61,643 nt of DNA from NCBI GenBank assembly GCA_943356485.1, contig CALRFD010000003.1, positions 101,815-163,457 of the forward strand, in the 5' to 3' direction. Positions 10,854 to 56,150 of this stretch are shown here, in pieces (within the stretch, counting starts at the first letter, position 1; every line of letters starts with the position of its first letter). This DNA comes from Patescibacteria group bacterium (GTDB lineage Bacteria; Patescibacteriota; Microgenomatia; Daviesbacterales; UBA10151). The position numbers were made by a program, and so were the translations under genes. The notes under the pieces are model-generated. The model did not search any database. It was not told where the DNA came from and was given only the letters and a program-made list of their open reading frames with translations.

Positions 10854-10903
10854 AGGTAAACTATCATATCTAATTACCACTTAAAAAAACAAGCGGTAAT
10901 TTT

Positions 10904-20635: not shown

Positions 20636-20675
20636 ATTCTATTGGTTTGAAATATGGAGATAAAACTTGAATTTG

Positions 20676-32481: not shown

Positions 32482-34275
32482 ATGGACAATCAACTTAAAG
32501 TTGAAAATGCAGTTGCAGCAATAAGAGTTTCCTCAACACAACAAGGAACTGATGGTGATTCCCCTGAAGCCCAAAAAGAACAGATCGAACAGTTTGCCAA
32601 AAGACATAATATTAATGTTAAAAAGTTCTTTGTCTTTATGGAATCTGCCTCCAAAGAACAACAACCTATGCAGGAGGCAATTGACTACTGCAAGAATCCT
32701 AAAAACGGCATCCAACTATTTGTTATCAAATCCATAGACCGATTTACCAGAGGTGGTTCATATTCATATGACCATTTAAAAATGCAGTTGGAAAAGTGTG
32801 GTGTACAACTTGTTGATATTTACGGCATTATCAGTTCTCAAAAAGTTAATACTTTAGAACACTTGGGGGTTTCATTTAATTGGAGTGTTTACTCACCCAC
32901 TAAAAAAGCTGAGATTTTAGAAGCAGAGAGAGCCAAAGATGAGATGCGGGATATTATGTCCAGAATGATTGGAGCAGAAATACGATATGCCAGAATGGGA
33001 TATTGGGTACGGGAAGCTCCAATGGGATATCAATTAGAAAAGATAGAAACTCCTAATGGCAAACGTTGTATCTTAAAACCTCATCCGATTGAAGCACAGT
33101 GGTTTATTAAAATGTTTGAACTGCGTTGTAGAGGAACACTAAATGATCACCAAATAGTTGATGAGATTAATAAACTTGGATTTAAAGCACGGATAAAATA
33201 TGTCAGAGACCCACAAGACAGAACCAAAATAATTAAAGAGCATGGTGGAGGTAAACTGAATGTTAAAGCTTTATGGCGATATATTCAAAATCCAACATAT
33301 GCAGGAGTAAGTGGAGAAAAATGGACAGAAAATCATAGGATAAAAGCTAAGTTCGAAGGATTAGTCTCCATAGAGACTTTTAATAAAGCCAATAAAGGAA
33401 AAGTGGTAATTTCAGAAGAAGATGGACAGGTAAAAATCTACCAAAGACCAGCACCGGAGTATTTAGTTAAAAAAGGCGTTAGAAATCCAGATTTTCCCTA
33501 TAAACGAGTTGTCATGTGTCCTCATTGTGAGAAGCCACTCTTTGGTAGTGCTTCAAGAGGAAGACTTGGTAAATACTATCCTGCGTATCATTGTAACAAG
33601 CGCGGACACTATTTTAGAGTATCTAAAGAGGCTTTAGAAGGAGTTGTGGAAAGGTTTGTACAGAATATTGATCTAGCACCGGAATTTGCTCCTGAATTAA
33701 CTTCAGCAGTCATAAATGAGTGGGACAAGAGACAACTAGAAATGACTAAGGACACAGTGAATATTGACAACAAACTCGAAGAGCTAAAAACCCAAGTAAA
33801 ACTAACGGTCGATAAAATTAAGATATTAACTTCTGAAGTTGCCATTAAATATCTTGAGCAAGACTTAATTAAACTGGAACAAGAGATTGGAGATTTAGTA
33901 TTAGAGAAAGAAAAAGCAGACCAGGAAAAACCAACAGATGCACGGATTGTGATGGCCTACATCAAATACTTTCTGGAACACATGGATGAATTACTACTTT
34001 CGAACCCAGATCCAGAAAATAAAGCGGGGCATTTTGGTGTTTTATTTGATAAAGCCCCTACCTATGAAGAAATAAATTCTGGAACACCACAAATAGCTTC
34101 TTGTATCAGCCTAAATGAGATATTTAGGCAGGGTCAAGGTATGTTGGCTGGCGGTCTATCGAAAAATTCGAACGCAATTCCAATCGCATTGAGTCGAAAG
34201 ATGCCCCGCCTGCGGCGGGGCTTTTATCTGTATCCGCTCGGCCTTCGGCCTCGCTCTGGTATTTTTTGCATATAA
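32482..34275 (+). CDS. large serine recombinase (recombinase 1)
   Basis: AAIRVSSTQQ catalytic-Ser region, IKSIDRFTRGG, zinc ribbon CPHCEKP...YHCNKRGH, coiled-coil tail. The last ~43 codons lie in the 97-bp inverted repeat and terminator, so the true stop is uncertain. Confidence 0.85.
   Translation: MDNQLKVENAVAAIRVSSTQQGTDGDSPEAQKEQIEQFAKRHNINVKKFFVFMESASKEQQPMQEAIDYCKNPKNGIQLFVIKSIDRFTRGGSYSYDHLKMQLEKCGVQLVDIYGIISSQKVNTLEHLGVSFNWSVYSPTKKAEILEAERAKDEMRDIMSRMIGAEIRYARMGYWVREAPMGYQLEKIETPNGKRCILKPHPIEAQWFIKMFELRCRGTLNDHQIVDEINKLGFKARIKYVRDPQDRTKIIKEHGGGKLNVKALWRYIQNPTYAGVSGEKWTENHRIKAKFEGLVSIETFNKANKGKVVISEEDGQVKIYQRPAPEYLVKKGVRNPDFPYKRVVMCPHCEKPLFGSASRGRLGKYYPAYHCNKRGHYFRVSKEALEGVVERFVQNIDLAPEFAPELTSAVINEWDKRQLEMTKDTVNIDNKLEELKTQVKLTVDKIKILTSEVAIKYLEQDLIKLEQEIGDLVLEKEKADQEKPTDARIVMAYIKYFLEHMDELLLSNPDPENKAGHFGVLFDKAPTYEEINSGTPQIASCISLNEIFRQGQGMLAGGLSKNSNAIPIALSRKMPRLRRGFYLYPLGLRPRSGIFCI
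34147..34243. repeat. 97-bp perfect inverted repeat, arm A (partner 46584..46680)
   Basis: Direct comparison: 34147..34243 equals the reverse complement of 46584..46680. Similarity continues imperfectly for about 17 nt. Confidence 0.9.
34203..34227 (+). terminator. intrinsic terminator inside repeat arm A
   Basis: GCCCCGCC-TGC-GGCGGGGC followed by TTTTAT. Confidence 0.6.
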
Positions 34276-34314
34276 CATAAAGACAAATGCGCGCGATTTT
34301 TATATCTATCTATA

Positions 34315-34332
34315 GTCCCGCTACCGCGGGAC
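34315..34332. repeat. GTCCCG..CGGGAC hairpin, copy 1
   Basis: tAGTCCCGCTACCGCGGGACGt; compare 46530..46548 and 49258..49276. Confidence 0.5.
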
Positions 34333-34368
34333 GTTAAGACATTAAAATAATTTAAACAATTTTTTAAT

Positions 34369-34520
34369 TCACCGTTTCGGGCTTTTGTAAAGCCCTAATC
34401 ACCGTAAAACGGTGAACGGTAACGGTAGCCTTACCGTAATTTAGGCTCTAAATTAAGCTAATCACGGTTGAACCGGTGCGTAGTACCGTTGCCTTTATCC
34501 GTTAACCGTACCGTAACGGT
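34369..34520. repeat. iteron-like cluster of ACCGT/ACGGT pentamers
   Basis: 6 ACCGT + 5 ACGGT copies in 150 bp, several as dyads (TCACCGT-AAA-ACGGTGA at 34399..34415; TACCGT-A-ACGGTG at 34509..34521). Confidence 0.7.
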
Positions 34521-35155
34521 GAAAAGCAAAAAACACATAGAGAAAAACAAAATAATCCCTAGGCTTTACTAAATCCCTACATCCCACCCACCCAAATAAT
34601 TGTTGGCGGCACCCCCGCTTTGTCGCTTGCTCGTTTTTACTGCGAAGCAGGAGCTTCGCTCATTTTAAGAAACATCTTATAGAGGTAACTCGCTGCGCTG
34701 GGCGAGAGGGCTCCCTAGGGGGAGCCTCACCCATATCTTCGGCTTCGATTTAGTCTTTACAGTCTCTACCTCGCTACGGGATTAGAGTTTAGTTTTTATA
34801 ATCATGGCATACACCCTCGCTCCCTTTTTTCTGTATATTAACCTCCTGCCGTTGCGGGGGTAATTCCTTTTTGCCCCCGCCTTTTTTATCTATACCCCTG
34901 TCTGTTTCCGGCCGTTCGCTTGCTCTCAAGAGCTGCGCTTCACGAAGCGGTTCCGATGGCTCGGGCCGATGGTACAAATCATCAAGTAAATCTATCGGCC
35001 CTCGCGGAGGTCGGGCAGCACCCAATTTAGTTTTATCTAAGTTCCGAAAAATCTCCTTCTAATGGTGCTGCCCTCCTTTTTTGGGACTATATACCTTGGC
35101 TGGCGGGGGCAGGAAGCCGCCAAAATAATAATGTCGCTTTTGTTATAATGCAAAA

Positions 35156-35953
35156 ATGCCTACAGTTAACGATAAACATTATTATCAGAGTTTCGCAAAA
35201 GAATTAGATAGTAAGTTAGGTAGGATAAACTCATTAATAAATAACCACCCTGGAGAAAAAGGAAATTACCATGAGTATATCCTTAAAAATTTAATATCTA
35301 ATTACCTTCCTTCAAGATATTCTGTTAAAACAGGATTTATTTATGTAGATGATACTCATGTTAGCCCTCAAATAGATCTTATGATTATTGATGAATCTCA
35401 ATCTCCATGTTTTTTGGCTCAATATAATGATTTTGTTGTTACTTACCCTGAGGCAGTTTGTTGCGTTATAGAGGTTAAAACAACTCTTGAAATTGAGGAA
35501 TTCAAAGAATCCACAAATCTAATACAGTTAGTCAAAAATTTAAGTCAATATAATAATCCTAAGGGTGAGGTAATAGGTGGGTTAATTTTTGGCTTTGGGG
35601 GAACTAGATTTAGACCAAAAACTTTAGATAATTGGTATAAAAATAAAATTGAATGTGATTTTACGGAATATCCAGAAGCCATTTTATCTCTCAAAACAGG
35701 ATTAATATTAAAGCATCATCTAAATACTGCTTATGAAGGACACTATTTTATTACAGGGGAAAGTGATTCTTTAAAATGGAAATCATTATCAATATTTATG
35801 GCTATAATTATAAAATTTTGTGAATTAAGATCAGGTGTAGAAAGACCAGAGGGAAAGAATGCATTTGAAAGATTTTCTCTGATACGAGATTTAATGCTAT
35901 CTGCTGAGTTTTTAAGGTACAAAATCGGATTACAAACAAGAAGTAAAAAATAA
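35156..35953 (+). CDS. PD-(D/E)xK-type nuclease-like protein (DUF6602-like N-terminus)
   Basis: GEKGNYHEYILKNLISNYLPSRYSVKTGFIY...SPQIDLMIIDES...VIEVKTTL (D..ExK). Confidence 0.5.
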   Translation: MPTVNDKHYYQSFAKELDSKLGRINSLINNHPGEKGNYHEYILKNLISNYLPSRYSVKTGFIYVDDTHVSPQIDLMIIDESQSPCFLAQYNDFVVTYPEAVCCVIEVKTTLEIEEFKESTNLIQLVKNLSQYNNPKGEVIGGLIFGFGGTRFRPKTLDNWYKNKIECDFTEYPEAILSLKTGLILKHHLNTAYEGHYFITGESDSLKWKSLSIFMAIIIKFCELRSGVERPEGKNAFERFSLIRDLMLSAEFLRYKIGLQTRSKK

Positions 35954-35954
35954 T

Positions 35955-36545
35955 ATGGCCTTTTCCGAAGATCAAAAGTTACAAGTCAAAAAGAAAGCAA
36001 TGTTCCGATGTTGCCGCTGTCAGAATATTGGGATAGATATTCACCATATATTACCTCAAAAAGATAGCGGACCGGATACTTTAGATAATGCTGCTCCATT
36101 ATGTCAAAATTGTCATGATCAATTTGGGGATAATCCAATAAAAAGGAAAGAAATTAAACAAATGAGAGATCACTGGTATGAAGTAGTTGAGCAAATGTAT
36201 ACTCCGAAAACAAGTCTCGAGTTCCCTCTGAAGGAAATAAATGATAAATTGGAAAGCTTGCAAAAAAATCAACAAACAGATTTGTCTGATCTGAAGAAAA
36301 TGCTAAAAGAAATTTCATTTAAGACTATTGATAATATTACTCCGGGTACCGCAGTAGTTACTGCATCAGGTATTATGAACGTTTCAACTGCCTCAATATA
36401 TACAAAACCTTTAAATGGAGGTATTGCAATTAATCCGATGAATCAATGCCAAAAATGCGGTAAATGGTATACAAGAAATATGTCTCCTTTTGGTTATGTA
36501 ACTGTAGACAATTTGTGTGACCAATGTAAATTAGAGACGTGGTAA
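35955..36545 (+). CDS. HNH endonuclease-domain protein
   Basis: CCRCQNIGIDIHHILPQKDSGPDTLDNAAPLCQNCHDQF; start 1 nt after the upstream stop; C-terminal CxxC..CxxC. Confidence 0.7.
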   Translation: MAFSEDQKLQVKKKAMFRCCRCQNIGIDIHHILPQKDSGPDTLDNAAPLCQNCHDQFGDNPIKRKEIKQMRDHWYEVVEQMYTPKTSLEFPLKEINDKLESLQKNQQTDLSDLKKMLKEISFKTIDNITPGTAVVTASGIMNVSTASIYTKPLNGGIAINPMNQCQKCGKWYTRNMSPFGYVTVDNLCDQCKLETW

Positions 36546-36599
36546 TTTTAAAGGTGTAAAATATTTGCACTGATAGATTATTAGATTTATACTAATCTT

Positions 36600-37367
36600 A
36601 TGTCTGATGATTCGCCCAATCAGAATGAGAGTCCGGTTTCTACCCCTCCTGCGTTTGGGACTAATTTCAATGGTTCAGCAGATCCATTAAGTGAAATCCA
36701 TAGGCAAGTAGCAGAACACGAGCAAAGAGACTCTCATGGCAGGTTTGTATCTAGCCATCATGATACAAATCCTGTAAATCTACCTGTTCCACCACAACCT
36801 ACACCTATTCAACCAAATCCCCCAAGTATCCCTAATTACCCCAATCTTCCTAATACTCCTAATCCTTCTGCTCCTACTATTCCACCTGAACCACAAGTAA
36901 TCCATAATAATAACTCAACTACTTCTTCAGATGATGATCCTCTCTTTGAAGCCAAAATCAATAATCCTTTTACTAAATTTTTTAACTGGCTCAAGAAGTT
37001 AATTAAAAATGAAGGAATAAATATTAAGATTAAACCGTTAACTGCAATTGCAATGGTTGTAGCATTAACCGGAGGTGGAGGATTAATTGGTGGAGTTGTT
37101 GGTTATGCTTTCCCTCATTCCTCACCGATACTACACAGAGAAGTAGCTTATCAAGGCTCTATTCAAAAAACTTCCAGTGGGATCTTCTTAATCCTGCCAA
37201 ACTTAGACAAATATACTTTAAAACCTAAAATAAATTCTCCTGTGGATTTTCAGAACTTAAATTCTGGACAAGCGTTTGTCAAAGGTAATTTAACCCCAGA
37301 GAATTTTGTAATTGAGGTAAGTGAAGTTATTCCATTAAATAATGGAAATGTTCAACCTAACCTTTAA
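36600..37367 (+). CDS. proline-rich membrane-anchored hypothetical protein
   Basis: PVPPQPTPIQPNPPSIPNYPNLPNTPNPSAP low-complexity region, then one TM. Confidence 0.4.
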   Translation: MSDDSPNQNESPVSTPPAFGTNFNGSADPLSEIHRQVAEHEQRDSHGRFVSSHHDTNPVNLPVPPQPTPIQPNPPSIPNYPNLPNTPNPSAPTIPPEPQVIHNNNSTTSSDDDPLFEAKINNPFTKFFNWLKKLIKNEGINIKIKPLTAIAMVVALTGGGGLIGGVVGYAFPHSSPILHREVAYQGSIQKTSSGIFLILPNLDKYTLKPKINSPVDFQNLNSGQAFVKGNLTPENFVIEVSEVIPLNNGNVQPNL

Positions 37368-37917
37368 TCAAATTAGATTAAACAGGAATCAAGGTTTTAC
37401 CCTTGTTGAGCTGCTTGTGGTCATTTCTATTATTGGAGTTTTAGCCGCAGTAATTACCTTCGTGATTAATCCCTTAGAATTGCTCAGAAGAAGCAGGGAT
37501 TCAAACAGGCTTAGGGATTTAGATAGTTTATCCCAAGCGATCAATGTGGCTTTGCAAGAAGGATCTTTATCTTCCAGTTATATAGCTACTATATTATGTA
37601 AAGAATCAGGAGAATACCCATGTGTGGGAAAATCTGATGCTGAAACTAGAATGACTGATGGTACTGGCTGGGTTAAAGTAAATTTTGCTTCCCAGAAAGC
37701 ATTAAGTATTCCTACTCTTCCAATAGATCCCACCAATAATAATGAATACCATTACACATATTGTGCAGATAATGACTCGTTTGAATTAGATACTACTTTA
37801 GAATCAGATAAATTTAGAGCTCAATCTGCTATGGACGGAGGAGATACAGCAGATTATTATGAAACAGGATCAAATCTAAACCTGATAGCTAATTCAGGTG
37901 GAAGTTGTGAATATTAA
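37348..37917 (+). CDS. type IV pilin-like / pseudopilin protein
   Basis: Prepilin N-terminal motif GFTLVELLVVISIIGVLAAV. Confidence 0.7.
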   Translation: MFNLTFNQIRLNRNQGFTLVELLVVISIIGVLAAVITFVINPLELLRRSRDSNRLRDLDSLSQAINVALQEGSLSSSYIATILCKESGEYPCVGKSDAETRMTDGTGWVKVNFASQKALSIPTLPIDPTNNNEYHYTYCADNDSFELDTTLESDKFRAQSAMDGGDTADYYETGSNLNLIANSGGSCEY

Positions 37918-38195
37918 GATAGTTTTCTTCTTTTATTTAGTTCTTTAACAATATCTCTTGGTGTTATTTTGAAAAAACTCATCATAACTAGCAAGTGAAA
38001 AAATAAATCTGCAATCTCTGAAATAAGCCTTTCTTTACTTTCATTTTTTGCAGCAATAATTACCTCTGTTGATTCCTCACCAACTTTTTGAATTATTCTA
38101 TCTCCTCCTCTTTTAAACAAAGAGGCAACATAAGAATTTTCTGGCATTTTCTTTTTACGATCTTCGATTATTTTATAAAGTTCTTCTAAATTCAT
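37914..38195 (-). CDS. hisE: phosphoribosyl-ATP pyrophosphatase
   Basis: SYVASLF..G...I.QKVGEESTEVIIAA...SEIADLFFHLLVM. Confidence 0.8.
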   Translation of the reverse strand: MNLEELYKIIEDRKKKMPENSYVASLFKRGGDRIIQKVGEESTEVIIAAKNESKERLISEIADLFFHLLVMMSFFKITPRDIVKELNKRRKLS

Positions 38196-38506
38196 ATTAC
38201 CTCCTGATAAAAACAAGCTTTATTTCCAGTGTGACAAACATTTTTTCCAACAAGTTCTACCTTTATTAAAATTGCATCTTTGTCGCAATCAACAAAAATA
38301 TTTTTTACTTTTAATTTATTTCCTGATGTTTCACCTTTCATCCAAAGTTTTCTTCTACTTCTGCTCCAAAAATATACCAATCCTGTTTTTAAGGTTTCTT
38401 GCAAAGCTTCCTTATTTATATAGCCAAGCATTAGAACCTCATTACTCTTATAATCTTGTATAACAGCAGGGATAAGTCCATTACTTTTTTCAAAGTTGAT
38501 TTTCAT
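38192..38506 (-). CDS. hisI: phosphoribosyl-AMP cyclohydrolase
   Basis: LIPAVIQD...SRSRRKLWMKGETSGN...DCDKDAILIKV..G..CHTG. Confidence 0.9.
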   Translation of the reverse strand: MKINFEKSNGLIPAVIQDYKSNEVLMLGYINKEALQETLKTGLVYFWSRSRRKLWMKGETSGNKLKVKNIFVDCDKDAILIKVELVGKNVCHTGNKACFYQEVI

Positions 38507-38509
38507 AAT

Positions 38510-39265
38510 TTAACTCCTCATTGGAATATTTTTTCTTCTTAAATAATTTTTTAAATCTCCAATAGTTAAATCACCAAAGTGGAACAAAGAAGCAGCTAGT
38601 GCTGCATCAGCAGATCCTTTATTAAAAACATCAAGAAAATCCTCAAGTTTTCCAGCTCCACCGGATGCAATTACTGGCACACTCACAACTTTAGAAATAT
38701 TTTTAGTTAGTTCCAGATCATACCCATTCTTGGTACCATCTCTGTCCATACTAGTTAATAAAATTTCACCAGCACCTTTTCTTACCCCTTCTTTAGCCCA
38801 CTCAATTGCATCTAATCCAGTTGCAGTTCTTCCTCCATTAATAAATACTTCCCAACCTTTCTCATTTTTCTTTGCATCAATTGCTAAAACAATACACTGG
38901 TTACCAAATATCTTTGCTGCTCCTTTAATAAGTTCAGGATTTTTAACAGCACTTGTATTTAAAGACACCTTATCTGCACCTGCCAGCAGAATATTTTGTA
39001 TATCTTCAATAGATCTAATTCCACCGCCGACAGTAAATGGAATAAATACCTGTTTTGCTACTTCTTTGACCACATCAACCATAGTCTCTCTATTATCAGA
39101 TGAAGCAGTAATATCTAGGAATACTAACTCATCAGCTCCTTGACTGTTATAAAACTTAGCCAACTCTACTGGATCTCCAGCATCTTTTATATTTATAAAA
39201 TTAACACCTTTCACGACCTTTCCTTTATCAACATCAAGACAAGGTATTATTCTTTTAGTTAACAT
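38510..39265 (-). CDS. hisF: imidazole glycerol phosphate synthase cyclase subunit
   Basis: [40 protein letters not shown]. Confidence 0.95.
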
Positions 39266-39965
39266 TTGTTACCTCCTCTAAATTTATTCTTCCTTCATAT
39301 AAAGCTTTACCTACTATAACTCCCTCAACACCAATATCTTTTAGCTTTTGAATATCGGAAACATTAGATATTCCACCAGCAATAATTACAGGAATATTTA
39401 TATTTTCTAATAAGCTTTCAACTGATTCGTAATTTGGAGAAGTGAGAGTTCCATCTTTTGTTACGTCTGTATAAATAAATCTTTTGACTCCCAGCTTTTC
39501 CAAGCGTTTAGCGGTTTCGATAAGATTTTTATCTGTACTATCTAACCAGCCATTTTTCATCAATACTCCATTTTTAGCATCCAGACTTACTATTATTTGT
39601 GTAGGATATTGACTGATTAATTCTTTAAATAATTCTTCATCCTCAAATATAATTGTTCCAAGAACAACCTTAGATACCCCTAATCCTAGAAGTTTATCAA
39701 TAGATTCTTTATTTCTAATACCTCCACCTATTTGTATAGGGATAGTGACCGTTTGCAAGATATCTTTTATAACTTCGATATTATCTAATGCTCCATTTTT
39801 AGCACCATCTAAATCTACTATGTGGACAATCTTAGCACCCTTTGACTGCCAAACTTTAGCAACTTTGACAGGATTATCGTTATATATTTTTTCCTTATTA
39901 AAATCACCTTGAATTAGACGGACACATTTACCGTTTTTAATATCAATAGCTGGGATAATTAACAT
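39255..39965 (-). CDS. hisA: ProFAR isomerase
   Basis: [42 protein letters not shown]. Confidence 0.9.
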
Positions 39966-40558
39966 ATTGCCTCCCAAAAGTTTTTTAATAACTCAAATCC
40001 AATCTTTCCACTTTTTTCTGGGTGGAATTGGACACCAAAAATATTATCTTTTTCTAAAACACTACAAAACTTTTCTCCGTATTCTGTTATTCCTTTAGTT
40101 GTCTCTTTATCCTTAGGATCACAATAGTAAGAATTAACAAAATAGAAATAGCTATTATTAATTCCTTTAAGTAGCTTTGAGTTATTACTTATCTTTACCT
40201 GATTCCATCCTATTTCTGGAACCTTCAGTTCAGTATTAAACTTTTTAACCTTCCCCTTTATTATATTTAGACAATCTACATCTCCTTCCTCACTAAAAGA
40301 AAATAGAAGTTGCATTCCTAAGCAAATACCAAGGATTGGTTTATTAGCTTTAACCTGATTAACAATTAATTTATCTAAACTTAGCTTTTTAAGATTAATC
40401 ATTCCCTGACCAGCAGCACCAACTCCTGGTAAAATCAATGCCTTAGCTCTTTTGATTTCTTCAGGATCATTCGAAATTGTCACAGGAATACCTAGCTTAG
40501 TTAAAGCATTTTTAACACTAGTTAGATTTCCTAATCCATAATCAATTACCACTATCAT
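39959..40558 (-). CDS. hisH: imidazole glycerol phosphate synthase glutaminase subunit
   Basis: VIDYGLGNL.SV, LPGVGA, GICLGMQLL, GVQFHPEKS. Confidence 0.95.
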   Translation of the reverse strand: MIVVIDYGLGNLTSVKNALTKLGIPVTISNDPEEIKRAKALILPGVGAAGQGMINLKKLSLDKLIVNQVKANKPILGICLGMQLLFSFSEEGDVDCLNIIKGKVKKFNTELKVPEIGWNQVKISNNSKLLKGINNSYFYFVNSYYCDPKDKETTKGITEYGEKFCSVLEKDNIFGVQFHPEKSGKIGFELLKNFWEAIC

Positions 40559-41145
40559 AATTTCCCTTTCGTTGAAGGTATCTGATTTATTGCTCTTTGA
40601 TCCAACTCACAAGCCATACGAATTGCCCGAGAAACTGCCTTAAAAATTGCTTCAATTTTGTGGTGCTCATTCTCTCCATATTCAACTTTTATAAATAAAT
40701 TAACTTTGGCATTTTGAGCAAAAGCATCCCAAAAGTGTTTTACAAGTTCAGTAGATAAATCTCCAACTTCTTCCCGAACAAAAGGGCACTCAAATCTAAA
40801 TGAGTATCTACCTGCAAAATCTATAACAACTGTAGCTAATGCTTCATCCATCGGCAGGATAAAAAAACCATAACGATTAATCCCTTTTTTATCTCCCAAG
40901 GCTTTTGCAAAAGTTTCACCTAAAACTATTCCTATATCTTCCACTGTGTGATGTTCATCAATATAAGTGTCCCCAGTTGCTTTAACAGTTAAGTCAAACA
41001 ATCCACCTTTGGCAAAAAGATCCAACATGTGGTTTAAAAATCCAACCGACGTCTCAATTTTTCTTTCTCCCACGCCATCAACATTTAATGAAATCTCTAC
41101 ATTAGTTTCATTAGTTTTTCTTTTTATTATTGCTTTACGATTCAT
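40555..41145 (-). CDS. hisB: imidazoleglycerol-phosphate dehydratase
   Basis: RKTNETNVEISLNVDG, DEHHTVEDIGIVLG, ENEHHKIEAIFKA. Confidence 0.95.
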   Translation of the reverse strand: MNRKAIIKRKTNETNVEISLNVDGVGERKIETSVGFLNHMLDLFAKGGLFDLTVKATGDTYIDEHHTVEDIGIVLGETFAKALGDKKGINRYGFFILPMDEALATVVIDFAGRYSFRFECPFVREEVGDLSTELVKHFWDAFAQNAKVNLFIKVEYGENEHHKIEAIFKAVSRAIRMACELDQRAINQIPSTKGKL

Positions 41146-42695
41146 ACAATTATTCCTCCTTTCATAAGTGCGTTGTAAAAATTACCATTAGTTTGCATAT
41201 AGACAAATTTAACTCCAATATTCTTTGCAAATAATTTATCCGTTGGTCTATCTCCACATACAAAAGATTTATCTTTATTTATTTGATTTTTAATTAGAAA
41301 CTTTTCAACAAGACCTGTTTTAGGTTTTCTGCAATTACAATTTTCTGATGGTAAGTGTGGACAAATAAATATTTCTTTAAACGTAATTCCATTTTTCTTA
41401 AAGATACTAAGCATTTTATTTTGAGGGATTTCAAAATTAGCTTTTGGAAATGAAGCAGTTCCTATTCCATTTTGATTTGAAATCATTATAAGTTCATATC
41501 CTCTATTATTAAGTTCCTTAAGACCTTTAATCACTCCATCTAAAATTCTTAATTTTTCAATACTGTCAATTTGAAATGTATCTTGCGGCTCAAAAATTAA
41601 AGTGCCATCTCTATCTAAAAATGCATACTTTGGTTTGCTTAATATTACGTTTTCGTATACCTCAATAAATTGTTTCATTTGCTTCACAGTTCCAATACTT
41701 ACACGAAGAGTATTTTCTATATTCGTCTTATCTTGAGGTCGCAATAAAATACCATTTTCTTTTAATAGCCTCCCTACCTGATTATTATTTGGTTTAAAAA
41801 GTATAAAGTTAGCTGATGAAGAATAATAAGTTACATCATTTTTATTAAAAAATTCTTCAACCATAGGTTTTGCCTTAGTCATAACTTCATCTACATAGTT
41901 TTGTATTTTTTTAAAATCCTCAAGTGAAGCAAAAGCGGCTGATAAAGCCACCATATTTACATCATAGGGACCACGGATTTTTAAAAACTCATTGATATAA
42001 ATATTTGAAGCAACAATATAACCAACTCTAAGTGAAGCGAGACCAAAAGCTTTTGATAGAGTTCTGGTGACAATAATATTTGGATATTTATTTATAAGTG
42101 GAACTGCGCTAACTCCTGAAAATTCAAAATATGCCTCATCAACCAATACGATAGAGTTTGAAGCTTTTTGTGCAATTTTTTTAATATCATTAATTGATAC
42201 CAAAGTTCCTGTGGGGTTATTAGGGTTACAAACTACAATGAGTTTTACCGATTTATTAATCATTCCTAATACCTCATTAATAGGAAATGATAAATCTGCT
42301 TTTTTGTATAAAGGAGTTAGTATTTTATTTCCCATTATTTGAGCAGATTGATAAAACATTGCAAAGCTGGGAGTAGGGATAATTACAGTATCATCCGTCT
42401 TTGTGAATGTACGGAAAATAATATCAATTGCTTGATCAGATCCGTTGGTGATCATAATCTGATCTGCGTTTACACCTACATATTTAGCCAACTTTTTCTC
42501 AAGGCCACCATATTCTGGATAAACCTGTAATTTATTTGTTGTCAAAAAGTCCTGAATAGCTTTTTGTACCTTTAATGGAGGTGGGAGAGTTCGCTCATTA
42601 AAATCCAATAGTATTCCACTAAATCCACGCCGTCCCGAAAGTGGCGGATTATATGATTTCATTTCTTTAATTCTTTGTAATGCTATATTTTTCAT
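41142..42695 (-). CDS. hisC: histidinol-phosphate aminotransferase fused to a HAD-type histidinol-phosphatase domain
   Basis: N-terminal class-II aminotransferase (NPNNPTG, SKAFGLASLRVGY). C-terminal about 160 aa with FLDRDGTL (DxDxT) and CNCRKPK as in HisB-N/GmhB phosphatases. Confidence 0.8.
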   Translation of the reverse strand: MKNIALQRIKEMKSYNPPLSGRRGFSGILLDFNERTLPPPLKVQKAIQDFLTTNKLQVYPEYGGLEKKLAKYVGVNADQIMITNGSDQAIDIIFRTFTKTDDTVIIPTPSFAMFYQSAQIMGNKILTPLYKKADLSFPINEVLGMINKSVKLIVVCNPNNPTGTLVSINDIKKIAQKASNSIVLVDEAYFEFSGVSAVPLINKYPNIIVTRTLSKAFGLASLRVGYIVASNIYINEFLKIRGPYDVNMVALSAAFASLEDFKKIQNYVDEVMTKAKPMVEEFFNKNDVTYYSSSANFILFKPNNNQVGRLLKENGILLRPQDKTNIENTLRVSIGTVKQMKQFIEVYENVILSKPKYAFLDRDGTLIFEPQDTFQIDSIEKLRILDGVIKGLKELNNRGYELIMISNQNGIGTASFPKANFEIPQNKMLSIFKKNGITFKEIFICPHLPSENCNCRKPKTGLVEKFLIKNQINKDKSFVCGDRPTDKLFAKNIGVKFVYMQTNGNFYNALMKGGIIV

Positions 42696-42699
42696 ATTT

Positions 42700-43986
42700 T
42701 TAAAACCTTATTGATACAGAATTTTTGTGAGCTGGTAATTGCTCAACTGTTGCAACTGTTTCAATCGTTTCTTTAATTTTTAACAATCCATCTTTGGTAC
42801 ACTTTTGCACTTGCATCCATTTTCCAAATGCATCAACCCCTAGAGGTGGATACATTTTTGCCATACCACCTGTTGGTAAAACGTGATTCGCTCCAGTTGC
42901 ATAATCTCCACTGGATTTAGATGTATAGTCTCCTAAGAAAACTGATCCAGCATTAGTTATTTTTGAAACTTTCTTTTCTGGATTTTTAGTCATAATTTCC
43001 AAATGCTCAGGCGCATATTCATTACTAAACTTTATTGCCTCGTCTAAGCTTTCAACCAAAGCAATAAGGCCATATTTAGTTAAGGATTCTTTAGCTCTAT
43101 CTTGAGTAGAGAGTGCAGGTAATTGTTTTTCAATTTCTTTGATAGTTTGTTCTGCTATCTCTTTTGAGGTTGTTAAAAGAACACAAGCAGAATCTCCTCC
43201 GTGTTCACCATCTGCCAGTAAATCGGCTGCAATAAATTTAGGATTTGCTGTCTCATCTGCAATAATAAAAACTTCAGAAGGCCCAGCTGGCATATCAATT
43301 GCAATTTTTTCTAAAGCAAGGATTTTTGCTGCTGTTACGTAGATATTTCCTGCTCCGAATATTTTATAGACACTAGGAATTGTTTCCGTTCCATAAAGCA
43401 TTGCAGCAATGGCTTCAGCTCCACCTACTTTATAAATCCTTTTAATATCCAACATTTCTGCTGCAAGTAAAACAACTGGATTAATTTGTCCATTTGATTG
43501 TGGGGGAGTACAGACAATAATTTCTTTACAACCAGCAATTTTGGCAGGTATTGCTGTCATTAAAAGTGATGAAGGATAAACAGCTTTTCCTCCTGGAATA
43601 TATAATCCTACTTTTTCAATCGCTCTCCATTCTCTCCATACTTCTATTCCCCTTTCAGTTTCTACTATATTATCTTTCTTCGCTTTCAGTTGGTTTTTAC
43701 ATACTTGAGTGATATTTTTGATCATTTGTCGAAGTCCAAATATGACTTGAATATCAACTTCATTGTAAGCTTTATCTAATTCTTCCTTAGTGATTTGAAT
43801 AGAATAATCCCCTTTATTACCCGAGAATTTTCTATAGTATCTAATTAGAGCCTTATCGCCATTTTGTTTAACATCTTGCATAATTTGCTTTACCACAGGA
43901 ATAACACTCTGGTAATCACCAGCAGATCTGTTAATAATTCTTTGATAATCTTTATTTGATAAATCTTTTAGTTTAATTACTTTCAT
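42700..43986 (-). CDS. hisD: histidinol dehydrogenase
   Basis: YIPGGKA.YPSS.LM, PSEV.IIAD, DLLADGEHG, GDY..G.NHVLPT. Start moved to MKVIKL behind an AAGGAG RBS (ORF track 42700..44109). Confidence 0.9.
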   Translation of the reverse strand: MKVIKLKDLSNKDYQRIINRSAGDYQSVIPVVKQIMQDVKQNGDKALIRYYRKFSGNKGDYSIQITKEELDKAYNEVDIQVIFGLRQMIKNITQVCKNQLKAKKDNIVETERGIEVWREWRAIEKVGLYIPGGKAVYPSSLLMTAIPAKIAGCKEIIVCTPPQSNGQINPVVLLAAEMLDIKRIYKVGGAEAIAAMLYGTETIPSVYKIFGAGNIYVTAAKILALEKIAIDMPAGPSEVFIIADETANPKFIAADLLADGEHGGDSACVLLTTSKEIAEQTIKEIEKQLPALSTQDRAKESLTKYGLIALVESLDEAIKFSNEYAPEHLEIMTKNPEKKVSKITNAGSVFLGDYTSKSSGDYATGANHVLPTGGMAKMYPPLGVDAFGKWMQVQKCTKDGLLKIKETIETVATVEQLPAHKNSVSIRF

Positions 43987-43994
43987 ATTTCTCC

Positions 43995-44867
43995 TTAAAT
44001 AATTTTCTCTATTGGCAAAACAATTATTCCTTGTGCACCAATATTTTTTAGTTTTTCTATTGTTTCCCAAAAGACCTGTTCTTTGATAACTGTTTGAATT
44101 GATATCCAACCTGTTTTTGCAAGTGGAGCAATGGTTGGAGATTTAAGACCAGGGACTATTTTCTTTATTTTAGGTAGTAAGTCTTTGGGAGCATTCATCA
44201 TTACATATTTGTAATCCTTAGCTGATAACACACCTTTAAATCTGGTGAGCAACTTTTCCACTAAAATTTTTCTTCCGTTTAATAAACTCTTTTCATTTGC
44301 TACTAAAACCGCTTCAGATTCGTATATTTTGGTAAGCATTCTTAAATCATTCAAAGCAAGAGTACTTCCTGTTGAAGTAAGGTCAACTATAGCTTCTGCT
44401 ACTCCTAGAGCTGGAGCAATTTCTACCGAACCACTAATTTTAACTACTTCTATTGATATGTTATTCTCTTTGAAAAACTTTTTTGTAGACTCTGGATACG
44501 AGGTCGCAATAGTCTTACCTTTTAGATCAGATATATCTTTAACCTCTGAATCCTTAGGCACTGCTACCATTAGGGAGCAGAAACCATATCTTAGATTAAG
44601 AAGTTTCTTAACCTTAGGTCTTTCTTCGTTTAGTATATTTTGACCTAAAATACCCAGGTCCACGGTTCCAGATGCTACATAGTCAGGAATATCATCGTCT
44701 CTGACATATAAAATTTCTAAGGGAAAATTTCTGCATACAGAAAATAGCCTTTGTTTGTAACTTTCAAACTCAAGACCTGATTTCCTTAGGAATTCAAGCG
44801 TCTCTTCAGTTAAACGCCCTCCTTTTTGTATTGCTAGTTTTAATTTTTTACTATCTAAATTTGCCAT
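43995..44867 (-). CDS. hisG: ATP phosphoribosyltransferase, long form
   Basis: LKLAIQKGGRL, RDDDIPDYV..G..DLGI.G, DLTSTGSTL, plus a C-terminal regulatory domain. Confidence 0.9.
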   Translation of the reverse strand: MANLDSKKLKLAIQKGGRLTEETLEFLRKSGLEFESYKQRLFSVCRNFPLEILYVRDDDIPDYVASGTVDLGILGQNILNEERPKVKKLLNLRYGFCSLMVAVPKDSEVKDISDLKGKTIATSYPESTKKFFKENNISIEVVKISGSVEIAPALGVAEAIVDLTSTGSTLALNDLRMLTKIYESEAVLVANEKSLLNGRKILVEKLLTRFKGVLSAKDYKYVMMNAPKDLLPKIKKIVPGLKSPTIAPLAKTGWISIQTVIKEQVFWETIEKLKNIGAQGIIVLPIEKII

Positions 44868-44889
44868 ATTTTTCCTTTCAATCTTTGTG

Positions 44890-44961
44890 GGTGGCTAAGG
44901 AGAATCGAACTCCCGCAACTGATTCCACAAACCAGTGTTCTGCCACTGAACTATAGCCACC
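44890..44961 (-). tRNA. tRNA-His (GUG) with G-1 and C73
   Basis: Hand fold: G-1, acceptor GTGGCTA/TAGCCAC, anticodon loop TTGTGGA, T-loop TTCGATT. Ends 22 nt upstream of the hisG ATG. Confidence 0.9.
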
Positions 44962-44965
44962 ATTT

Positions 44966-45225
44966 TTCCAATAAAAAACCTCCCGTTCATTACCAACCAC
45001 GAAAAATACGTGATTAATAAGGAACGAGAGGCCATAAAAAAAGGACCCCCCGCGGTCCCATCCTTTGTTCTTAAAAAGAGTTACTTCTTAAGCTCTTGGT
45101 CCGGCTCTAGTCTTGTGACTGACAGCGGTCGATATTCTTTGTACAGCTATATCTTTCTGTAGGGTATTTGGCCCTCAGCTCTTGGATCGTGACTCCAATA
45201 CAAACGCCTTTACATATTCAGTTGT
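44966..45225 (-). promoter_or_regulatory. candidate T-box riboswitch leader, His-specific
   Basis: Minus-strand AAAGGAUGGGACCGCGG (45050..45066) against T-box consensus GGGUGGNACCGCG. UGGG matches C73 of tRNA-His. An antiterminator/terminator alternative can be drawn. CAC triplets at 45115..45117 and 45189..45191. Confidence 0.6.
44973..45031 (-). terminator. long intrinsic terminator (T-box terminator helix)
   Basis: Minus strand: CCUCUCGUUCC...GAACGGGAGG followed by UUUUUU. Confidence 0.7.
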
Positions 45226-45231
45226 AAAAGT

Positions 45232-45260
45232 AGTATAACAATAAATACTTATCTTGTCAA
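45232..45260 (-). promoter_or_regulatory. sigma70-type promoter for the T-box/tRNA-His/his transcript
   Basis: Minus strand: TTGACA (45260..45255), 17 nt, TATACT (45237..45232). Confidence 0.55.
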
Positions 45261-45283
45261 ATATGTTATAGGATATCTTAATA

Positions 45284-46372
45284 TTACTTAACTATTTCTT
45301 CTTTCTTATCGCTGCTATCGGTCTTAATTGTTTTAGCTTGTAGTAATTTCCGTTTTTCTAAACTACCCTCCAACATCTCTATTTTTTTATACTTATCAGC
45401 TAATTGCATTTGTAAAGAATCTGTACTCCCATCTTCTTCAGAGATATCTACTCTTCCTCCATTATCAATAAATCTATAGATTAGATCTATAGCCTTTACT
45501 AGTGCAGTGTTAACCTCTTTTGTATCGTTAGTCCCTTCTAGTTTATTTGAGAACTTCTCCATTAACACTCCAACTATTCTTTCGACATTCCCATCTAGCA
45601 GTTTTTCCTCATCCTGTTTCATACCTAAAGAGGCATTTTCTAGTTGTAGTTTTTCTATCTCCAAGTTTAATTTTCTAAGACTTAAAATCTTTTCATAAAT
45701 ACTAAGTAGTTCTTTAACAACTATACCTATAGCCTTTGCAACCAAAACAGCTAGTGCCAGATCTACTACTAACGGAGATCCCTTCTGAATAGAAAATATC
45801 TTAGATTCCTCTGCGGGGTCCTTTGTTAATCTGGAGAAAGCTAATAAAATAATTCTCCATTCTTTAGAATACTTTTCTAAATCATTAAGAGTTTCTACTG
45901 AAGAATCTTTATCGAATACTAATTGTAATAGTTGTTTACCTTTTTCTAATTCTTCACCACCTTGAGTTGCTAGGTTAGTCATATTACTTAGAAGATTTTT
46001 TGTAGTTTGGTTGAAGTTTGTTAAGTTATTTAAAATCTCTTGAACTTGTTGTGCAGCACCAGCAGGATCTGCTTGATATTTTTCAAAGATACTTTCCAAG
46101 GCTTTTTTCGCTTTGATACCTATAAATTTATCTGCTCCATAATCCTCAAATAATTTTAATTTTAAGAAGTCCCATCCTTTTGGTTGAATTTCGGTTTGAA
46201 GCTGCTCAATTTGTTCTTTTTTTTGGAGTAATTGAGCTGAATTTTCTGGAGAAGGAGAGGATTGAGCTTGATTGAGTAGATTTATTAATTCTTGATATAA
46301 ATTGGGGAGATTATTCTCGTTTATAACTTTGTCTATATAACTTAAAACTGAAACAAATTCTTTTAATTGCAT
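45284..46372 (-). CDS. hypothetical coiled-coil protein with one central TM
   Basis: 362-aa ORF; no motif recognised. Its ATG directly follows a hairpin + T-run, so the start is uncertain. Confidence 0.4.
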   Translation of the reverse strand: MQLKEFVSVLSYIDKVINENNLPNLYQELINLLNQAQSSPSPENSAQLLQKKEQIEQLQTEIQPKGWDFLKLKLFEDYGADKFIGIKAKKALESIFEKYQADPAGAAQQVQEILNNLTNFNQTTKNLLSNMTNLATQGGEELEKGKQLLQLVFDKDSSVETLNDLEKYSKEWRIILLAFSRLTKDPAEESKIFSIQKGSPLVVDLALAVLVAKAIGIVVKELLSIYEKILSLRKLNLEIEKLQLENASLGMKQDEEKLLDGNVERIVGVLMEKFSNKLEGTNDTKEVNTALVKAIDLIYRFIDNGGRVDISEEDGSTDSLQMQLADKYKKIEMLEGSLEKRKLLQAKTIKTDSSDKKEEIVK

Positions 46373-46393
46373 AAAAAAGCCCCTCTTGGGGGC
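46373..46393 (-). terminator. intrinsic terminator abutting the start codon of the 45284..46372 ORF
   Basis: Minus strand: GCCCCCAAGAGGGGC + TTTTTT, then immediately ATG. Confidence 0.45.
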
Positions 46394-46529
46394 ATTAATA
46401 AAAAGTATATAACTTTACTTAATAAACCACAAGATTATATTTTGATATAAATTGCCTCTCTTGAAACAATATCTTTAAGCAGTATAGTAAGGGGGCGAAA
46501 AGTTCTTTAAAATTTTTGCGTTTTTTGTA

Positions 46530-46548
46530 GTCCCGATTATATCGGGAC
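46530..46548. repeat. GTCCCG..CGGGAC hairpin, copy 2
   Basis: tAGTCCCGATTATATCGGGACGt. Confidence 0.5.
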
Positions 46549-46583
46549 GTGTTCGAGCCGACAGTTTAGAGCGGTAGGCCTCC

Positions 46584-46680
46584 GGCCGAGCGGATACAGA
46601 TAAAAGCCCCGCCGCAGGCGGGGCATCTTTCGACTCAATGCGATTGGAATTGCGTTCGAATTTTTCGATAGACCGCCAGC
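46584..46680. repeat. 97-bp perfect inverted repeat, arm B (partner 34147..34243)
   Basis: Reverse complement identical to 34147..34243. Confidence 0.9.
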
Positions 46681-46760
46681 AAATCTGGATCGGAGGGGCG
46701 CGGAACGTCAGAAATCGCGGGGAGGGGGTACGTTGCGAGGGTTTTCCAGCCTCGGTTTTG
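46677..46760. repeat. 84-bp perfect inverted repeat, left arm (partner 48311..48394)
   Basis: Reverse complement identical to 48311..48394. Shares the 4 nt CAGC/GCTG with arm B. Confidence 0.9.
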
Positions 46761-46885
46761 GAAGTTGTCGGGAATAAAAAGAAACAAAAAACGGACTGGT
46801 ACGCAAAAATTTAGCTCACGTTGTTCGCAGAAAAGAACTTTTCCTTTTAAGAGGAAAACCAAAAAATATAATTAAATAAACTGCC

Positions 46886-48424: not shown

Positions 48425-48462
48425 CTCCAAAGGCTATCGTCCTGCCATTAGACGATCCCGCA
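48392..48462 (-). tRNA. tRNA-Gln (UUG)
   Basis: Hand fold: U1-A72 acceptor TGCGGGA/TCCCGCA, G73, anticodon loop CTTTGGA, T-arm CATGG-TTCGAAT-CCATG. Confidence 0.85.
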
Positions 48463-49610: not shown

Positions 49611-49641
49611 GGCAAGGCGGGCTAGTCCGCCCGAAGGGTGG
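49611..49641. repeat. REP-like UUCG-hairpin element, copy 3
   Basis: GGCGGGCTAGTCCGCCCGAAGGGTGG; family consensus AGGTGCCrrGCTAGwCCrCCCGAAGGGTGG. Confidence 0.65.
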
Positions 49642-50488: not shown

Positions 50489-50518
50489 AGGTGCCGGGCT
50501 AGTCCACCCGAAGGGTGG
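50489..50518. repeat. REP-like UUCG-hairpin element, copy 4
   Basis: AGGTGCCGGGCTAGTCCACCCGAAGGGTGG; 26/30 identical to the reverse complement of 316..345. Confidence 0.65.
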
Positions 50519-50554
50519 GAAGTGGGAATGATAGTAGGGAATATATCTACCAGA

Positions 50555-51766: not shown

Positions 51767-51804
51767 TATAACCTATAATTATTTAAGACGCAAGCTAGTT
51801 TTTG

Positions 51805-51927
51805 GTACTTATTCAGTGTTTCCCAGCAGGTGTCATTCTGGAGCGAAGCGAGAGAATCTAAAAAGATCCTATCAGTCGGCTTTCAGCCTCCTTCCAGGAT
51901 GACTACTGGGAAAGACTGAATACTTAC
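51805..51927. mobile_element. 123-bp MITE-like element, copy 2
   Basis: 51809..51927 identical to 10908..11026. Flanks AGTTTTTG / AGTTTATA are only a partial direct repeat. Confidence 0.75.
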
Positions 51928-56065: not shown

Positions 56066-56150
56066 TGTCGAAGAGAGGAGTTGAACCTCCACCCCTCTTG
56101 CGAGGGACAGGCTTCTGAGGCCTGCGCGTCTGCCATTCCGCCACTTCGAC
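56066..56150 (-). tRNA. tRNA-Leu (CAG)
   Basis: Hand fold: GTCGAAG/CTTCGAC, anticodon loop CTCAGAA, 17-nt variable arm, T-loop TTCAACT. Confidence 0.9.

Follow-up and report, generated by a model that had tools for sequence, protein, structure and literature searches.

Does a block of genes enclosed by perfect inverted repeats, with a serine recombinase gene beside each repeat, invert? This question is raised by the window (the whole stretch of 61,643 nucleotides analysed here), in which a 12.3-kb block carrying a his operon lies between two arms of 97 bp. Direct reading confirms the original prediction that these arms form a perfect inverted repeat, arm A being the reverse complement of arm B. 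The predicted positions also hold: arm A falls within the final 129 nt of the open reading frame (ORF) of one recombinase gene, rec1, and arm B lies 206-302 nt 5' of the start of the other, rec2 (Table 1). A repeat search places the 97-nt core in longer inverted arms (34144-34251 and 46576-46683; 108 nt, 96% identical) and reveals a second inverted repeat of 84 nt (100%), missed by the original prediction, which directly adjoins arm B and has its other copy at the 3' end of rec2. No other inverted pair longer than 39 nt exists in the 61.6-kb window. These features very probably belong to one integrative element of 14,248 bp (34147-48394), driven by the large serine recombinase (LSR) rec2 and inserted at the 3' end of a tRNA-Gln gene. 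It appears to have introduced the complete histidine pathway into a bacterium of reduced genome, and free flipping of the block is not supported.

Three junctions define the anatomy of the element: rec1-end/Y (34147), P/Y (46680, minus strand), and P/tRNA-Gln (48394), where Y denotes the 97-bp arm and P the 84-nt arm. Arms recur between junctions in pairs (Y at 34147 and 46680, P at 46680 and 48394), and the sequence common to all three is GCTG only. Arm A contains the codons for the LSR tail, AVYRKIRTQFQSH, plus a stop (34151-34192), a terminator-like hairpin (34203-34221), and half of a GGCC hairpin. The internal P arm is a non-coding copy of the final 84 nt of rec2 before the crossover. In a related locus (L018) the empty tRNA-Gln site reads ...CGTCG GCTG CGGGACATGG. 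Judged from sequence, the exchange appears to be conservative, as in 27 of 30 tabulated loci, the window included, no more than 2-7 nt are common to the junction types; automatic junction mapping failed in the remaining three (L031, L043, and L060). ARAGORN and Rfam find no tRNA or tRNA fragment in arm Y, and a manual cloverleaf fails; only the T-loop is resembled. A 146-nt direct repeat (10881 and 51782), considered as the ends of a larger island, is an unrelated, self-complementary short repeat.

In the proposed mechanism, attP would lie inside the 3' end of rec2, so that integration would split the recombinase gene. The P half-site would be roughly the last 90-120 nt of the rec2 coding sequence, and the P' half-site (Y) would comprise the final 13 codons (the Y-x-K-I-R-T-x-F tail), the stop codon, and the terminator. 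Upon integration, the gene body would remain beside the tRNA to form attR (P/tRNA, 48394), and the tail would move to the far end of the element to form attL (X/Y, 34147). The element also holds a second intact P/Y, inverted, just upstream of rec2 (46584-46760). On this reading, the 97-bp repeat is Y at attL paired with Y of this internal copy, the 84-bp repeat is P of the internal copy paired with P at attR, and the DNA between the Y arms is cargo, in this case the his operon. Neither an excised circle nor an empty rec1/tRNA-Gln junction is seen in the k=31 Logan contigs of the source runs (3-8x depth).

Table 1. Features of the rec2 element and its borders in the window
Feature	Position	Strand	Basis or remark
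rec1, 597-aa large serine recombinase, probable older neighbouring element	32482..34275	+	Pfam Resolvase, weak Recombinase match
Core GCTG of putative attL, crossover region	34147..34150	+	Also 46677-46680 (reverse complement) and 48391-48394
Arm A (Y), putative P' arm of attL	34147..34243	+	Tail codons, hairpin, half GGCC hairpin
A' module, just inside distal arm	34244..34343	+	Conserved in relatives
GC-rich tract, conserved structured-RNA-like element module	34560..35155	+	
Cargo: DUF6602 protein, HNH nuclease, unknown 255-aa protein, pilin-like protein	35156..37917	+	Pfam
Cargo: complete his operon	37914..44867	-	Pfam families on called genes
Cargo: tRNA-His (GTG), directly 5' of hisG	44889..44960	-	ARAGORN, Rfam
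Cargo: orphan 362-aa gene	45284..46372	-	Pfam: no match
B' module, conserved, just inside LSR-proximal arm	46373..46583	.	BLAST, promoter scan
Arm B, Y arm of putative internal inverted attP copy (S2)	46584..46680	-	
P arm of putative internal inverted attP copy	46677..46760	-	84-nt, 100% inverted repeat with 48311-48394
rec2, 512-aa large serine recombinase of the element	46886..48424	+	Pfam Resolvase, Recombinase, Zn_ribbon_recom
P arm of putative attR	48311..48394	+	Encodes variable rec2 linker preceding crossover
tRNA-Gln (TTG), integration target	48391..48462	-	3' end overlaps core by 4 nt

The rec2 protein has an N-terminal resolvase catalytic domain (PF00239, E=4.6e-22) with the motif YCRKST and its serine at position 10, followed by a C-terminal recombinase domain (PF07508, E=1.8e-13) and a zinc ribbon (PF13408, E=2.9e-9). 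The sole match of a PDB search by sequence is to the catalytic domain (3g13, E=3e-8). As integrated, the last nine codons of rec2 are antisense tRNA-Gln sequence. The split reading frame recurs in the family: in 43 of 48 loci the recombinase ORF stays open as far as the crossover, and when the frame is read on into Y, about 44 of 51 loci are in frame with the conserved tail. Arm Y encodes this C-terminal peptide (Y-x-K-I-R-T-x-F), then a stop, then a terminator. Among 83 distinct arms the R of the tail is present in 79, the T in 78, and the F in 75; the entropy of the three positions of the Thr codon is 0.09, 0.32, and 1.76.

The family of rec2 relatives numbers at least 7,931 proteins (E≤1e-30). 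Of 143 related loci examined, about 120 carry the same double inverted repeat: 54 of 67 from Microgenomates genomes and 66 of 76 from metagenomes encoding relatives. Within a few nucleotides of where the proximal repeat ends, 56 of 72 and 51 of 69 loci have the start of a convergent tRNA gene; 13 kinds of tRNA are represented. The homogenisation of the arms suggested in the original prediction agrees with the comparison of two genomes, in which the arms are 100% identical within each genome and only 57-63% identical between them (recombinases 81% identical). Across the family, likewise, arms are near-identical inside one element and diverged between elements, and they are presumably held identical by gene conversion.

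Two other accounts of the repeats have to be weighed, namely that they arose in assembly, through a misjoin or the collapse of a repeat at one of the arms, and that they bound a programmed invertible segment. The source is a low-coverage metagenome. All junctions are present in the Logan unitigs of three lake-water runs (k=31), and the k=31 Logan contigs of the source runs (X1-X3) confirm each junction singly but cannot phase repeats of 84-97 nt. However, other samples provide two independent MEGAHIT k141 contigs that align collinearly with the window across arm A (99.99-100% identity), and one of them is also collinear across arm B and the second repeat. With three independent k141 assemblies in agreement and the same architecture in more than 100 unrelated assemblies by different groups, the probability of an artefact is negligible. 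The original prediction was of a candidate invertible block between two recombinase loci. In a programmed segment like those of Hin, Gin, or Cin, rec1 and/or rec2 would act on the 97-bp arms to switch expression of the enclosed genes. The original claim that the arms are recombinase sites adjoining serine recombinase genes is supported, as perfect inverted repeats do adjoin these genes and recombinase half-sites do lie within the arms. The arms are accounted for, however, as arms of attL and attP, so that both belong to the element of rec2 (P' of attL and P' of the internal attP); rec1 would be merely a neighbour from an older insertion, and it lies beside an arm in only two of about 150 loci. 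The block has the same orientation in all three assemblies, and all 40 informative related loci keep the A' and B' modules at fixed positions, with no swap between them. Therefore, free inversion is not supported. The genes flanking the block read inward behind terminators, and therefore no outside promoter would be switched. Both enzymes are large integrase-type proteins (597 and 512 aa). A programmed invertible segment is thus very improbable.

How, then, did rec1 come to lie beside arm A? The rec1 ORF crosses the junction at 34147 and ends by read-through within arm A. Its Resolvase match is clear (PF00239, E=4.5e-9), its PF07508 match is weak and below the cut-off, and cysteine pairs are visible in the sequence. 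In one relative (L032), a rec1 homologue (47% identical) likewise terminates right at the distal Y arm belonging to an element of the rec2 type. The two types of element occur in tandem arrays there and in L163, and in L158, L095, and L142 the same junction of a rec2 P arm to non-tRNA sequence is interpreted as the left boundary of an element of the rec1 type. The rec1 element would accordingly be the older one, and rec1 would adjoin arm A because its element occupied the same tRNA before the element of rec2 was inserted between them. The left boundary of the rec1 element is probably near 27.2-27.7 kb; the flanks of L018 and L013, tried as a guide to it, have no homology to the window.

The content predicted for the block was right, except for a T-box: Rfam finds the tRNA-His, and a search of 44800-46900 at E≤1 returns no T-box. 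The his operon comprises hisG, hisD, hisC fused to a HAD phosphatase, hisB-IGPD, hisH, hisA, hisF, hisI, and hisE. The pilin-like protein has an N-terminal methylation motif of the type IV pilin kind. Horizontal acquisition of the his genes, suggested originally, looks supported: they form part of the cargo, the closest relative has a different one, and their GC3 is atypical (0.16-0.23 vs 0.29-0.41 in host-like ORFs). The length of the cargo ranges from 0.6 to 12.3 kb across relatives and its content varies among them; minimal relatives have just 0.6-0.9 kb besides the recombinase. A prophage was rejected as an explanation, as the cargo consists of metabolic and small accessory genes rather than virion or packaging genes, and no relative of rec2 is matched in IMG/VR.

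Three conserved modules accompany the arms. The A' module has BLAST matches in 13 related loci, all distal and all on the plus strand. The B' module has matches in 17 loci, always proximal; it carries a GGCTCGAAC motif and promoter-like sites on both strands (plus-strand site at 46461-46488), and reaches very high depth in groundwater metagenomes. The GC-rich tract, aligned with eight relatives, is folded by RNAalifold into 47 pairs, 17 of them with compensatory changes, and many predicted G-U pairs fit the plus strand. It includes a 77-nt insert specific to the window (34622-34698). Rfam searches of the whole window (gathering threshold) and of 34000-35300 (by E-value) return only tRNAs, and no known RNA in this tract.

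The element resembles several known systems in part. In Hin, Gin, Cin, and Pin systems, enzymes of about 190 aa recombine 26-bp sites with the help of an enhancer, and populations contain both orientations side by side. Here, too, a serine recombinase gene lies by or within DNA bounded by inverted repeats, and the rec2 segment between the P arms resembles hin between hixL and hixR. In contrast, the enzymes are of 512-597 aa and have integrase-type C-terminal domains rather than a helix-turn-helix, the arms are of 84-120 nt, and all assemblies have a single orientation. The FLP of the yeast 2-micron plasmid is a tyrosine recombinase which flips segments for copy-number amplification. The excised element would be similar in being a circle with two inverted recombinase sites and two segments, but no flipping or replication function is evident. 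In cluster G and related mycobacteriophages, as Broussard et al. reportedly described in 2013, immunity depends on integration and attP lies within the repressor gene. Here also attP would lie in coding sequence and the integrated and free forms would differ in a protein C-terminus; unlike in these phages, the recombinase itself would be split, and the element retains the split site in one more copy, inverted. Insertion at tRNA 3' ends, tandem accretion at one tRNA, and variable cargo are shared with islands of the Islander type, which are tRNA-gene islands driven by tyrosine integrases (PMC4383910). A tyrosine-integrase island was rejected, as the recombinases are of the serine type and the tRNA is not split and rebuilt; junctions share only 2-7 nt (GCTG in the window), with no duplicated tRNA 3' segment.

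The closest likeness is to the large serine integrases (e.g., Listeria A118/LI, phiC31, Bxb1, and SPbeta SprA), with which rec2 shares the resolvase catalytic, recombinase, and zinc ribbon domains, as well as an apparently conservative crossover with few shared bases and no long target duplication. In serine integrases, the zinc-ribbon motif is shifted by 5 bp between attP and attB, being nearer the centre in attB (PMC3783163). The T-loop motif TCGAAC matches this shift: in 62 of 74 loci, the motif in Y is 4-5 nt more distant from the crossover than the one in the tRNA (+4 in 47, +5 in 15). Unlike these integrases, rec2-type elements target the 3' ends of many different tRNA genes, attP would lie inside the recombinase ORF so that integration removes the conserved C-terminal peptide, a second inverted attP is present upstream of the gene, and no directionality factor is evident.

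Some observations count against the reading of an integrative element. In the target, the left (B) half-site shows no conservation, an unusual feature in the serine integrase class. Canonical serine integrases require a directionality factor for excision, and the element yielded no candidate. Were the free form to carry two identical attP sites, either should be usable; yet the gene-proximal site is used in about 107 loci and the other in one only (L110).

What the internal inverted copy does may be explained in two ways. It may be a regulatory module in the rec2 leader, either a site at which the recombinase would repress its own promoter and that of the divergent cargo, by analogy with resolvase at res, or a 5' leader complementary to the 3' end of its own mRNA. 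The copy lies between promoter-like sites facing both ways, and in many relatives it lies just 18-40 nt ahead of the start codon; therefore the transcript must begin inside or upstream of it. Binding alone needs less than 200 nt, and long complementarity would account for an identity of about 200 nt where a binding site would take ~50 nt, but in the integrated form the mRNA offers nothing with which the Y part could pair. A regulatory role is possible, though doubtful. The copy might also serve as a spare 3' end. If homologous or site-specific recombination inverted the 1.55-kb rec2 segment lying between the two P arms, tail and terminator would be rejoined to the recombinase body with the element still integrated, and the enzyme would be reactivated, e.g., for excision. 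The tail is conserved, is translated only in the P/Y configuration, and is absent from integrated copies; the P arms hardly differ over their inner ~90 nt, and therefore a crossover there would give an in-frame gene; and the architecture is kept in about 84% of loci. Yet a flipped recombinase, with the tRNA upstream of the gene, is found in none of about 150 loci, and attL already holds a copy of the tail, so that excision alone would restore the gene. This role is rather unlikely. A separate small protein from the internal copy (ORF 46635-46862) was rejected, as its starts are not conserved and the frame is often closed by stops or lacks a start.

Speculatively, and with low probability, the integrative element could have a self-contained directionality switch that works without a separate factor. 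Integration would remove the tail and keep an inverted spare 3' end, and inversion of the gene or excision would restore the tail. Whether the enzyme has its tail would then determine which of integration, excision, or silence follows. The conserved structured RNA nearby may also be involved. Serine integrases which use a tRNA T-arm as half of the target and have their own gene split by integration are not described in the papers searched, and they bear on the open question of how direction is controlled in serine integrases. Their fast co-evolving attP arms and many tRNA targets make a natural series of orthogonal integrase/site pairs, and the repeats account for the tendency of assemblies of these genomes to break at the recombinase gene. 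Bacteria of the candidate phyla radiation have tiny genomes and few described mobile elements. In Microgenomates, the rec2-type family appears to be a major channel of gene transfer, and it can carry an entire amino-acid pathway together with its tRNA.

The DNA between 34147 and 48394 of the window is predicted to be one element of 14,248 bp, bounded by attL and attR, and its sequence suggests that it works as a serine-integrase island. Two large serine recombinase (LSR) genes are associated with it. rec2 encodes the full LSR domain set (resolvase, recombinase, and zinc ribbon), and rec1 is a second, different member; both were assigned to the LSR class by membership tests. The element failed the tests for a Hin/Gin-type invertible segment, a tyrosine-integrase tRNA island, and a prophage. 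Two kinds of arm make up its junctions: P, at the 3' end of rec2, and Y, past the crossover, carrying a peptide tail, stop codon, and terminator. The three junctions share these arms pairwise, and GCTG alone is common to all three. The sequence to the left of GCTG at the rec1 end is ...GGTATGTTG, and CGTCG-GCTG-CGGGACATGG is the sequence of an unoccupied tRNA-Gln site in a related Daviesbacteria genome.

Features of the element and its boundaries in the window
Feature	Position	Strand	Remark
rec1	32482-34275	+	LSR gene
rec2	46886-48424	+	LSR gene
Junction rec1 end/Y	34147	+	attL (B/P')
Junction P/Y	46680	-	intact attP (P/P'), inverted
Junction P/tRNA-Gln	48394	+	attR (P/B'); overlaps last 4 nt of tRNA-Gln
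tRNA-Gln	48391-48462	-	integration target at attR
Inverted Y arms	34144-34251 / 46576-46683		108 nt, 96% (repeat scan)
Perfect core of Y arms (arm A / arm B)	34147-34243 / 46584-46680		97 nt
Second inverted repeat (P arms)	46677-46760 / 48311-48394		84 nt, 100% (whole-window repeat scan)
Terminator hairpin in Y	34203-34221

The 97-bp perfect inverted repeat of the original prediction is confirmed as the core of a slightly longer pair of arms. The second perfect repeat, absent from the original prediction, adjoins arm B and is a copy of the rec2 3' end. Other samples of the same study yielded two more MEGAHIT k141 contigs, which match the window collinearly at 99.99-100% across the repeats, and each junction is present in Logan unitigs of three lake-water runs. 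This agreement shows that the repeats are real rather than a product of misassembly.

Relatives of rec2 occur at 78 loci in a one-genome-per-species scan, all in Microgenomates/Patescibacteria MAGs, and at 80 further loci in a metagenome scan, some of which overlap the genome set. The 3' end of the recombinase gene is repeated 20-400 nt upstream of its start in 54 of the 67 testable genome loci and 66 of the 76 metagenome ones. The second repeat, between the Y abutting this upstream copy and an arm 0.6-9.7 kb farther upstream, is found at 31 genome and 27 metagenome loci. A convergent tRNA gene starts a few nucleotides from the repeat end (56/72 genome and 51/69 metagenome loci), while a tRNA upstream of the recombinase was found at none of the loci checked in either set. 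The targeted tRNAs are Gln, Ser, Glu, Leu, Pro, Lys, Val, Gly, Trp, Asp, Asn, Tyr, and Arg. In a table of 30 loci, mapping of the junctions failed for three (L031, L043, and L060); every locus with both repeat boundaries mapped has the same logic of X/Y (X being the sequence left of the distal Y), P/Y, and P/tRNA junctions with a core of 2-7 nt. The closest relative, L013, encodes a recombinase 81% identical to rec2 and occupies the same tRNA-Gln, and its cargo (the DNA between the Y arms) of 8.6 kb has no DNA similarity to that of the window.

Contig ends very frequently fall less than ~130 nt from the recombinase 3' end (L004, L007, L018, L021, L031, L035, L037, L041, L064, and many metagenome loci). 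It seems that ~100-nt inverted repeats or mixed integration states break assemblies at this point. In unrelated groundwater metagenomes, two stretches of the window are found at ≥85% identity and 160-540x depth, far above the rest of the gene. One (48171-48324) is the recombinase 3' coding region around AAACTGTCGGCTCGAAC, and the other (46477-46553) is the B' region, a conserved module just inside the proximal arm, where the GGCTCGAAC motif occurs a second time, immediately outside Y.

Integration appears to split the recombinase gene. In 43 of 48 loci no stop codon precedes the crossover, and the ORF continues for 6-308 nt into the antisense strand of the tRNA. Reading from the P arm into Y, as would occur in an excised circle, gives an in-frame tail followed by a stop in about 44 of 51 loci. 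In the window this tail is AVYRKIRTQFQSH; rec2 ends in ...DPDLLAVYRKIRTQFQSH with the Y-encoded tail and in ...DPDLLRDMDSNHDR in the integrated form. Among 83 distinct arms the tail follows the motif hydrophobic-Y/F-x-K/Q-I/V-R-T-x-F, with R in 79, T in 78, and F in 75. The entropies of the three Thr codon positions (0.09/0.32/1.76) and the conservative variation of the hydrophobic positions indicate that the tail is under protein-coding selection. The native gene would consist of body, P, and Y, with the tail, stop codon, and terminator hairpin removed by integration. About 8-10 of the 119 closest database proteins have the tail, and the C-termini of most others are antisense-tRNA peptides. 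Tandem arrays account for at least some of the tailed copies: an upstream recombinase there reads into the Y of the next element (L163). A literature search found no description of tRNA 3'-end targeting, of a split recombinase gene whose severed tail is conserved, or of an internal inverted attP.

In several database relatives of ~720-890 aa (P0003, P0005-P0008, P0011, P0017, P0026, and P0051), one recombinase subtype is fused at ...SMPT/LAFGQSKYYVDNLSEN to the body of another, different recombinase whose first ~120 residues are missing. The fusions look like insertions of one element subtype into the best-conserved region of recombinase genes in other elements.

The arms are homogenised within each element. 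Within the window, and likewise within L013, the Y arms match at 100%, but at 63% between the two; P arms are 100% (window) and 88.6% (L013) identical within and 57% between. P arms differ mainly at 90-120 nt from the core, and over the inner ~90 nt they almost always agree fully. Gene conversion between inverted copies would be the simplest cause of this identity; consensus sequences show no inverting crossovers between the arms.

Distant relatives (33-46% identity) also reside at tRNA genes without a second attP, which implies that the internal copy is an addition in the rec2 clade and is not needed for integration. With two identical attP sites in the free form, either should be usable. Integration appears to have gone through the gene-proximal attP in about 107 loci and through the upstream copy in one (L110). 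At L110:560-2451 the recombinase 3' end is joined to Y, giving the full tail AYEKIRTSF, and the inverted P arm upstream borders a tRNA-Leu-like pseudo-site (AGAAGAGGTATTTTATTTTGAACC); this arrangement looks like integration through the upstream copy. The internal copy is a candidate regulatory leader or operator, a reading favored by the gap of merely 18-40 nt between copy and start codon in many relatives. The other candidate role is that of a stored 3' end, which inversion of the rec2 segment could re-join to the gene. A separate small gene in the copy was considered and rejected.

A homologue of rec1 in L032 (47% identical) ends exactly at the distal Y of a rec2-type element, with the 3' part of a third recombinase farther left. 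A rec2-type P arm in L158, L095, and L142 borders non-tRNA sequence of the kind found at the L032 junction, and this sequence can be read as the left end of a rec1-type element. Together these junctions indicate that both families pile up in tandem at tRNA genes, where the newest element would adjoin the tRNA. In the window, the rec1 ORF continues into Y in a frame that does not encode the tail. Elsewhere in the window, tRNA-Leu(CAG) has a 32-nt copy (88%) of its 5' part 314 nt past the gene (56119-56150 vs 56433-56464), which may be what remains of an earlier island of a different type. The tRNA-Leu site is empty in the window and is occupied by a rec2-type element in L010.

Cargo spans 583 bp to 12.3 kb across loci, and its ends are fixed: A' and a GC-rich tract lie just after the distal arm, and B' just before the proximal arm. 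Among 47 non-redundant loci, the A' motif is exclusively distal (37 loci) and the B' motif exclusively proximal (26 loci), and the two are swapped in none of the 40 informative loci. This argues against the freely invertible block of the original prediction, whose interpretation is supported in part. Its other proposal, horizontal acquisition of the his cargo, is supported by the GC3 of the cargo, 0.16-0.23 vs 0.29-0.41 in host-like ORFs. The cargo of the window holds genes for all steps of histidine synthesis as well as tRNA-His; his genes were found in the cargo of none of the 78 genome loci. Within 44889-45284, tRNA-His lies directly upstream of hisG on the same strand. The T-box that had been proposed there has no Rfam match at E≤1.

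The GC-rich tract (34560-35155, + strand) is a conserved structured-RNA-like module just inside attL, with homologues including L013:1398-1912, L028:2057-2465, and L009:200-625. The RNAalifold prediction comprises 47 pairs, with compensatory double changes at 17, and shows a long-range helix and many G-U pairs fitting the + strand. The tract has no Rfam match, and the window copy carries a 77-nt insert. The window-specific part of the left non-coding module (34360-34530) is dense in ACCGT/ACGGT words (caccgtaaaacggtgaacggtaacggtag...ccgtaccgtaacggtg), resembling iterated protein-binding sites. Other repeats lie outside the element. A ~127-nt identical direct repeat, 40.9 kb apart (10900-11026 and 51800-51927), is in itself one long, imperfect hairpin (TATTCAGTGTTTCCCAGCAGG...CCTGGGAAAGACTGAATA), resembling a MITE or some other small structured element. 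Short GC-rich, REP-like hairpin repeats (CACCCTTCGGGTGG plus flank) occur in both orientations at 317-350, 20607-20640, 49618-49644, and 50495-50521.

The distance from the junction is most often 12 nt for the T-loop TCGAAC on the tRNA side and most often 16 nt for the motif AAAATTCGAAC in arm Y. Of 74 non-redundant loci, 62 have an offset difference between Y and tRNA of +4 or +5. In serine integrases the zinc-ribbon recognition motif lies 5 bp closer to the center in attB than in attP (PMC3783163). The spacing is consistent with a P'-type half-site in Y and a B'-type half-site in the tRNA T-arm, which would explain the use of many different tRNAs by related enzymes.
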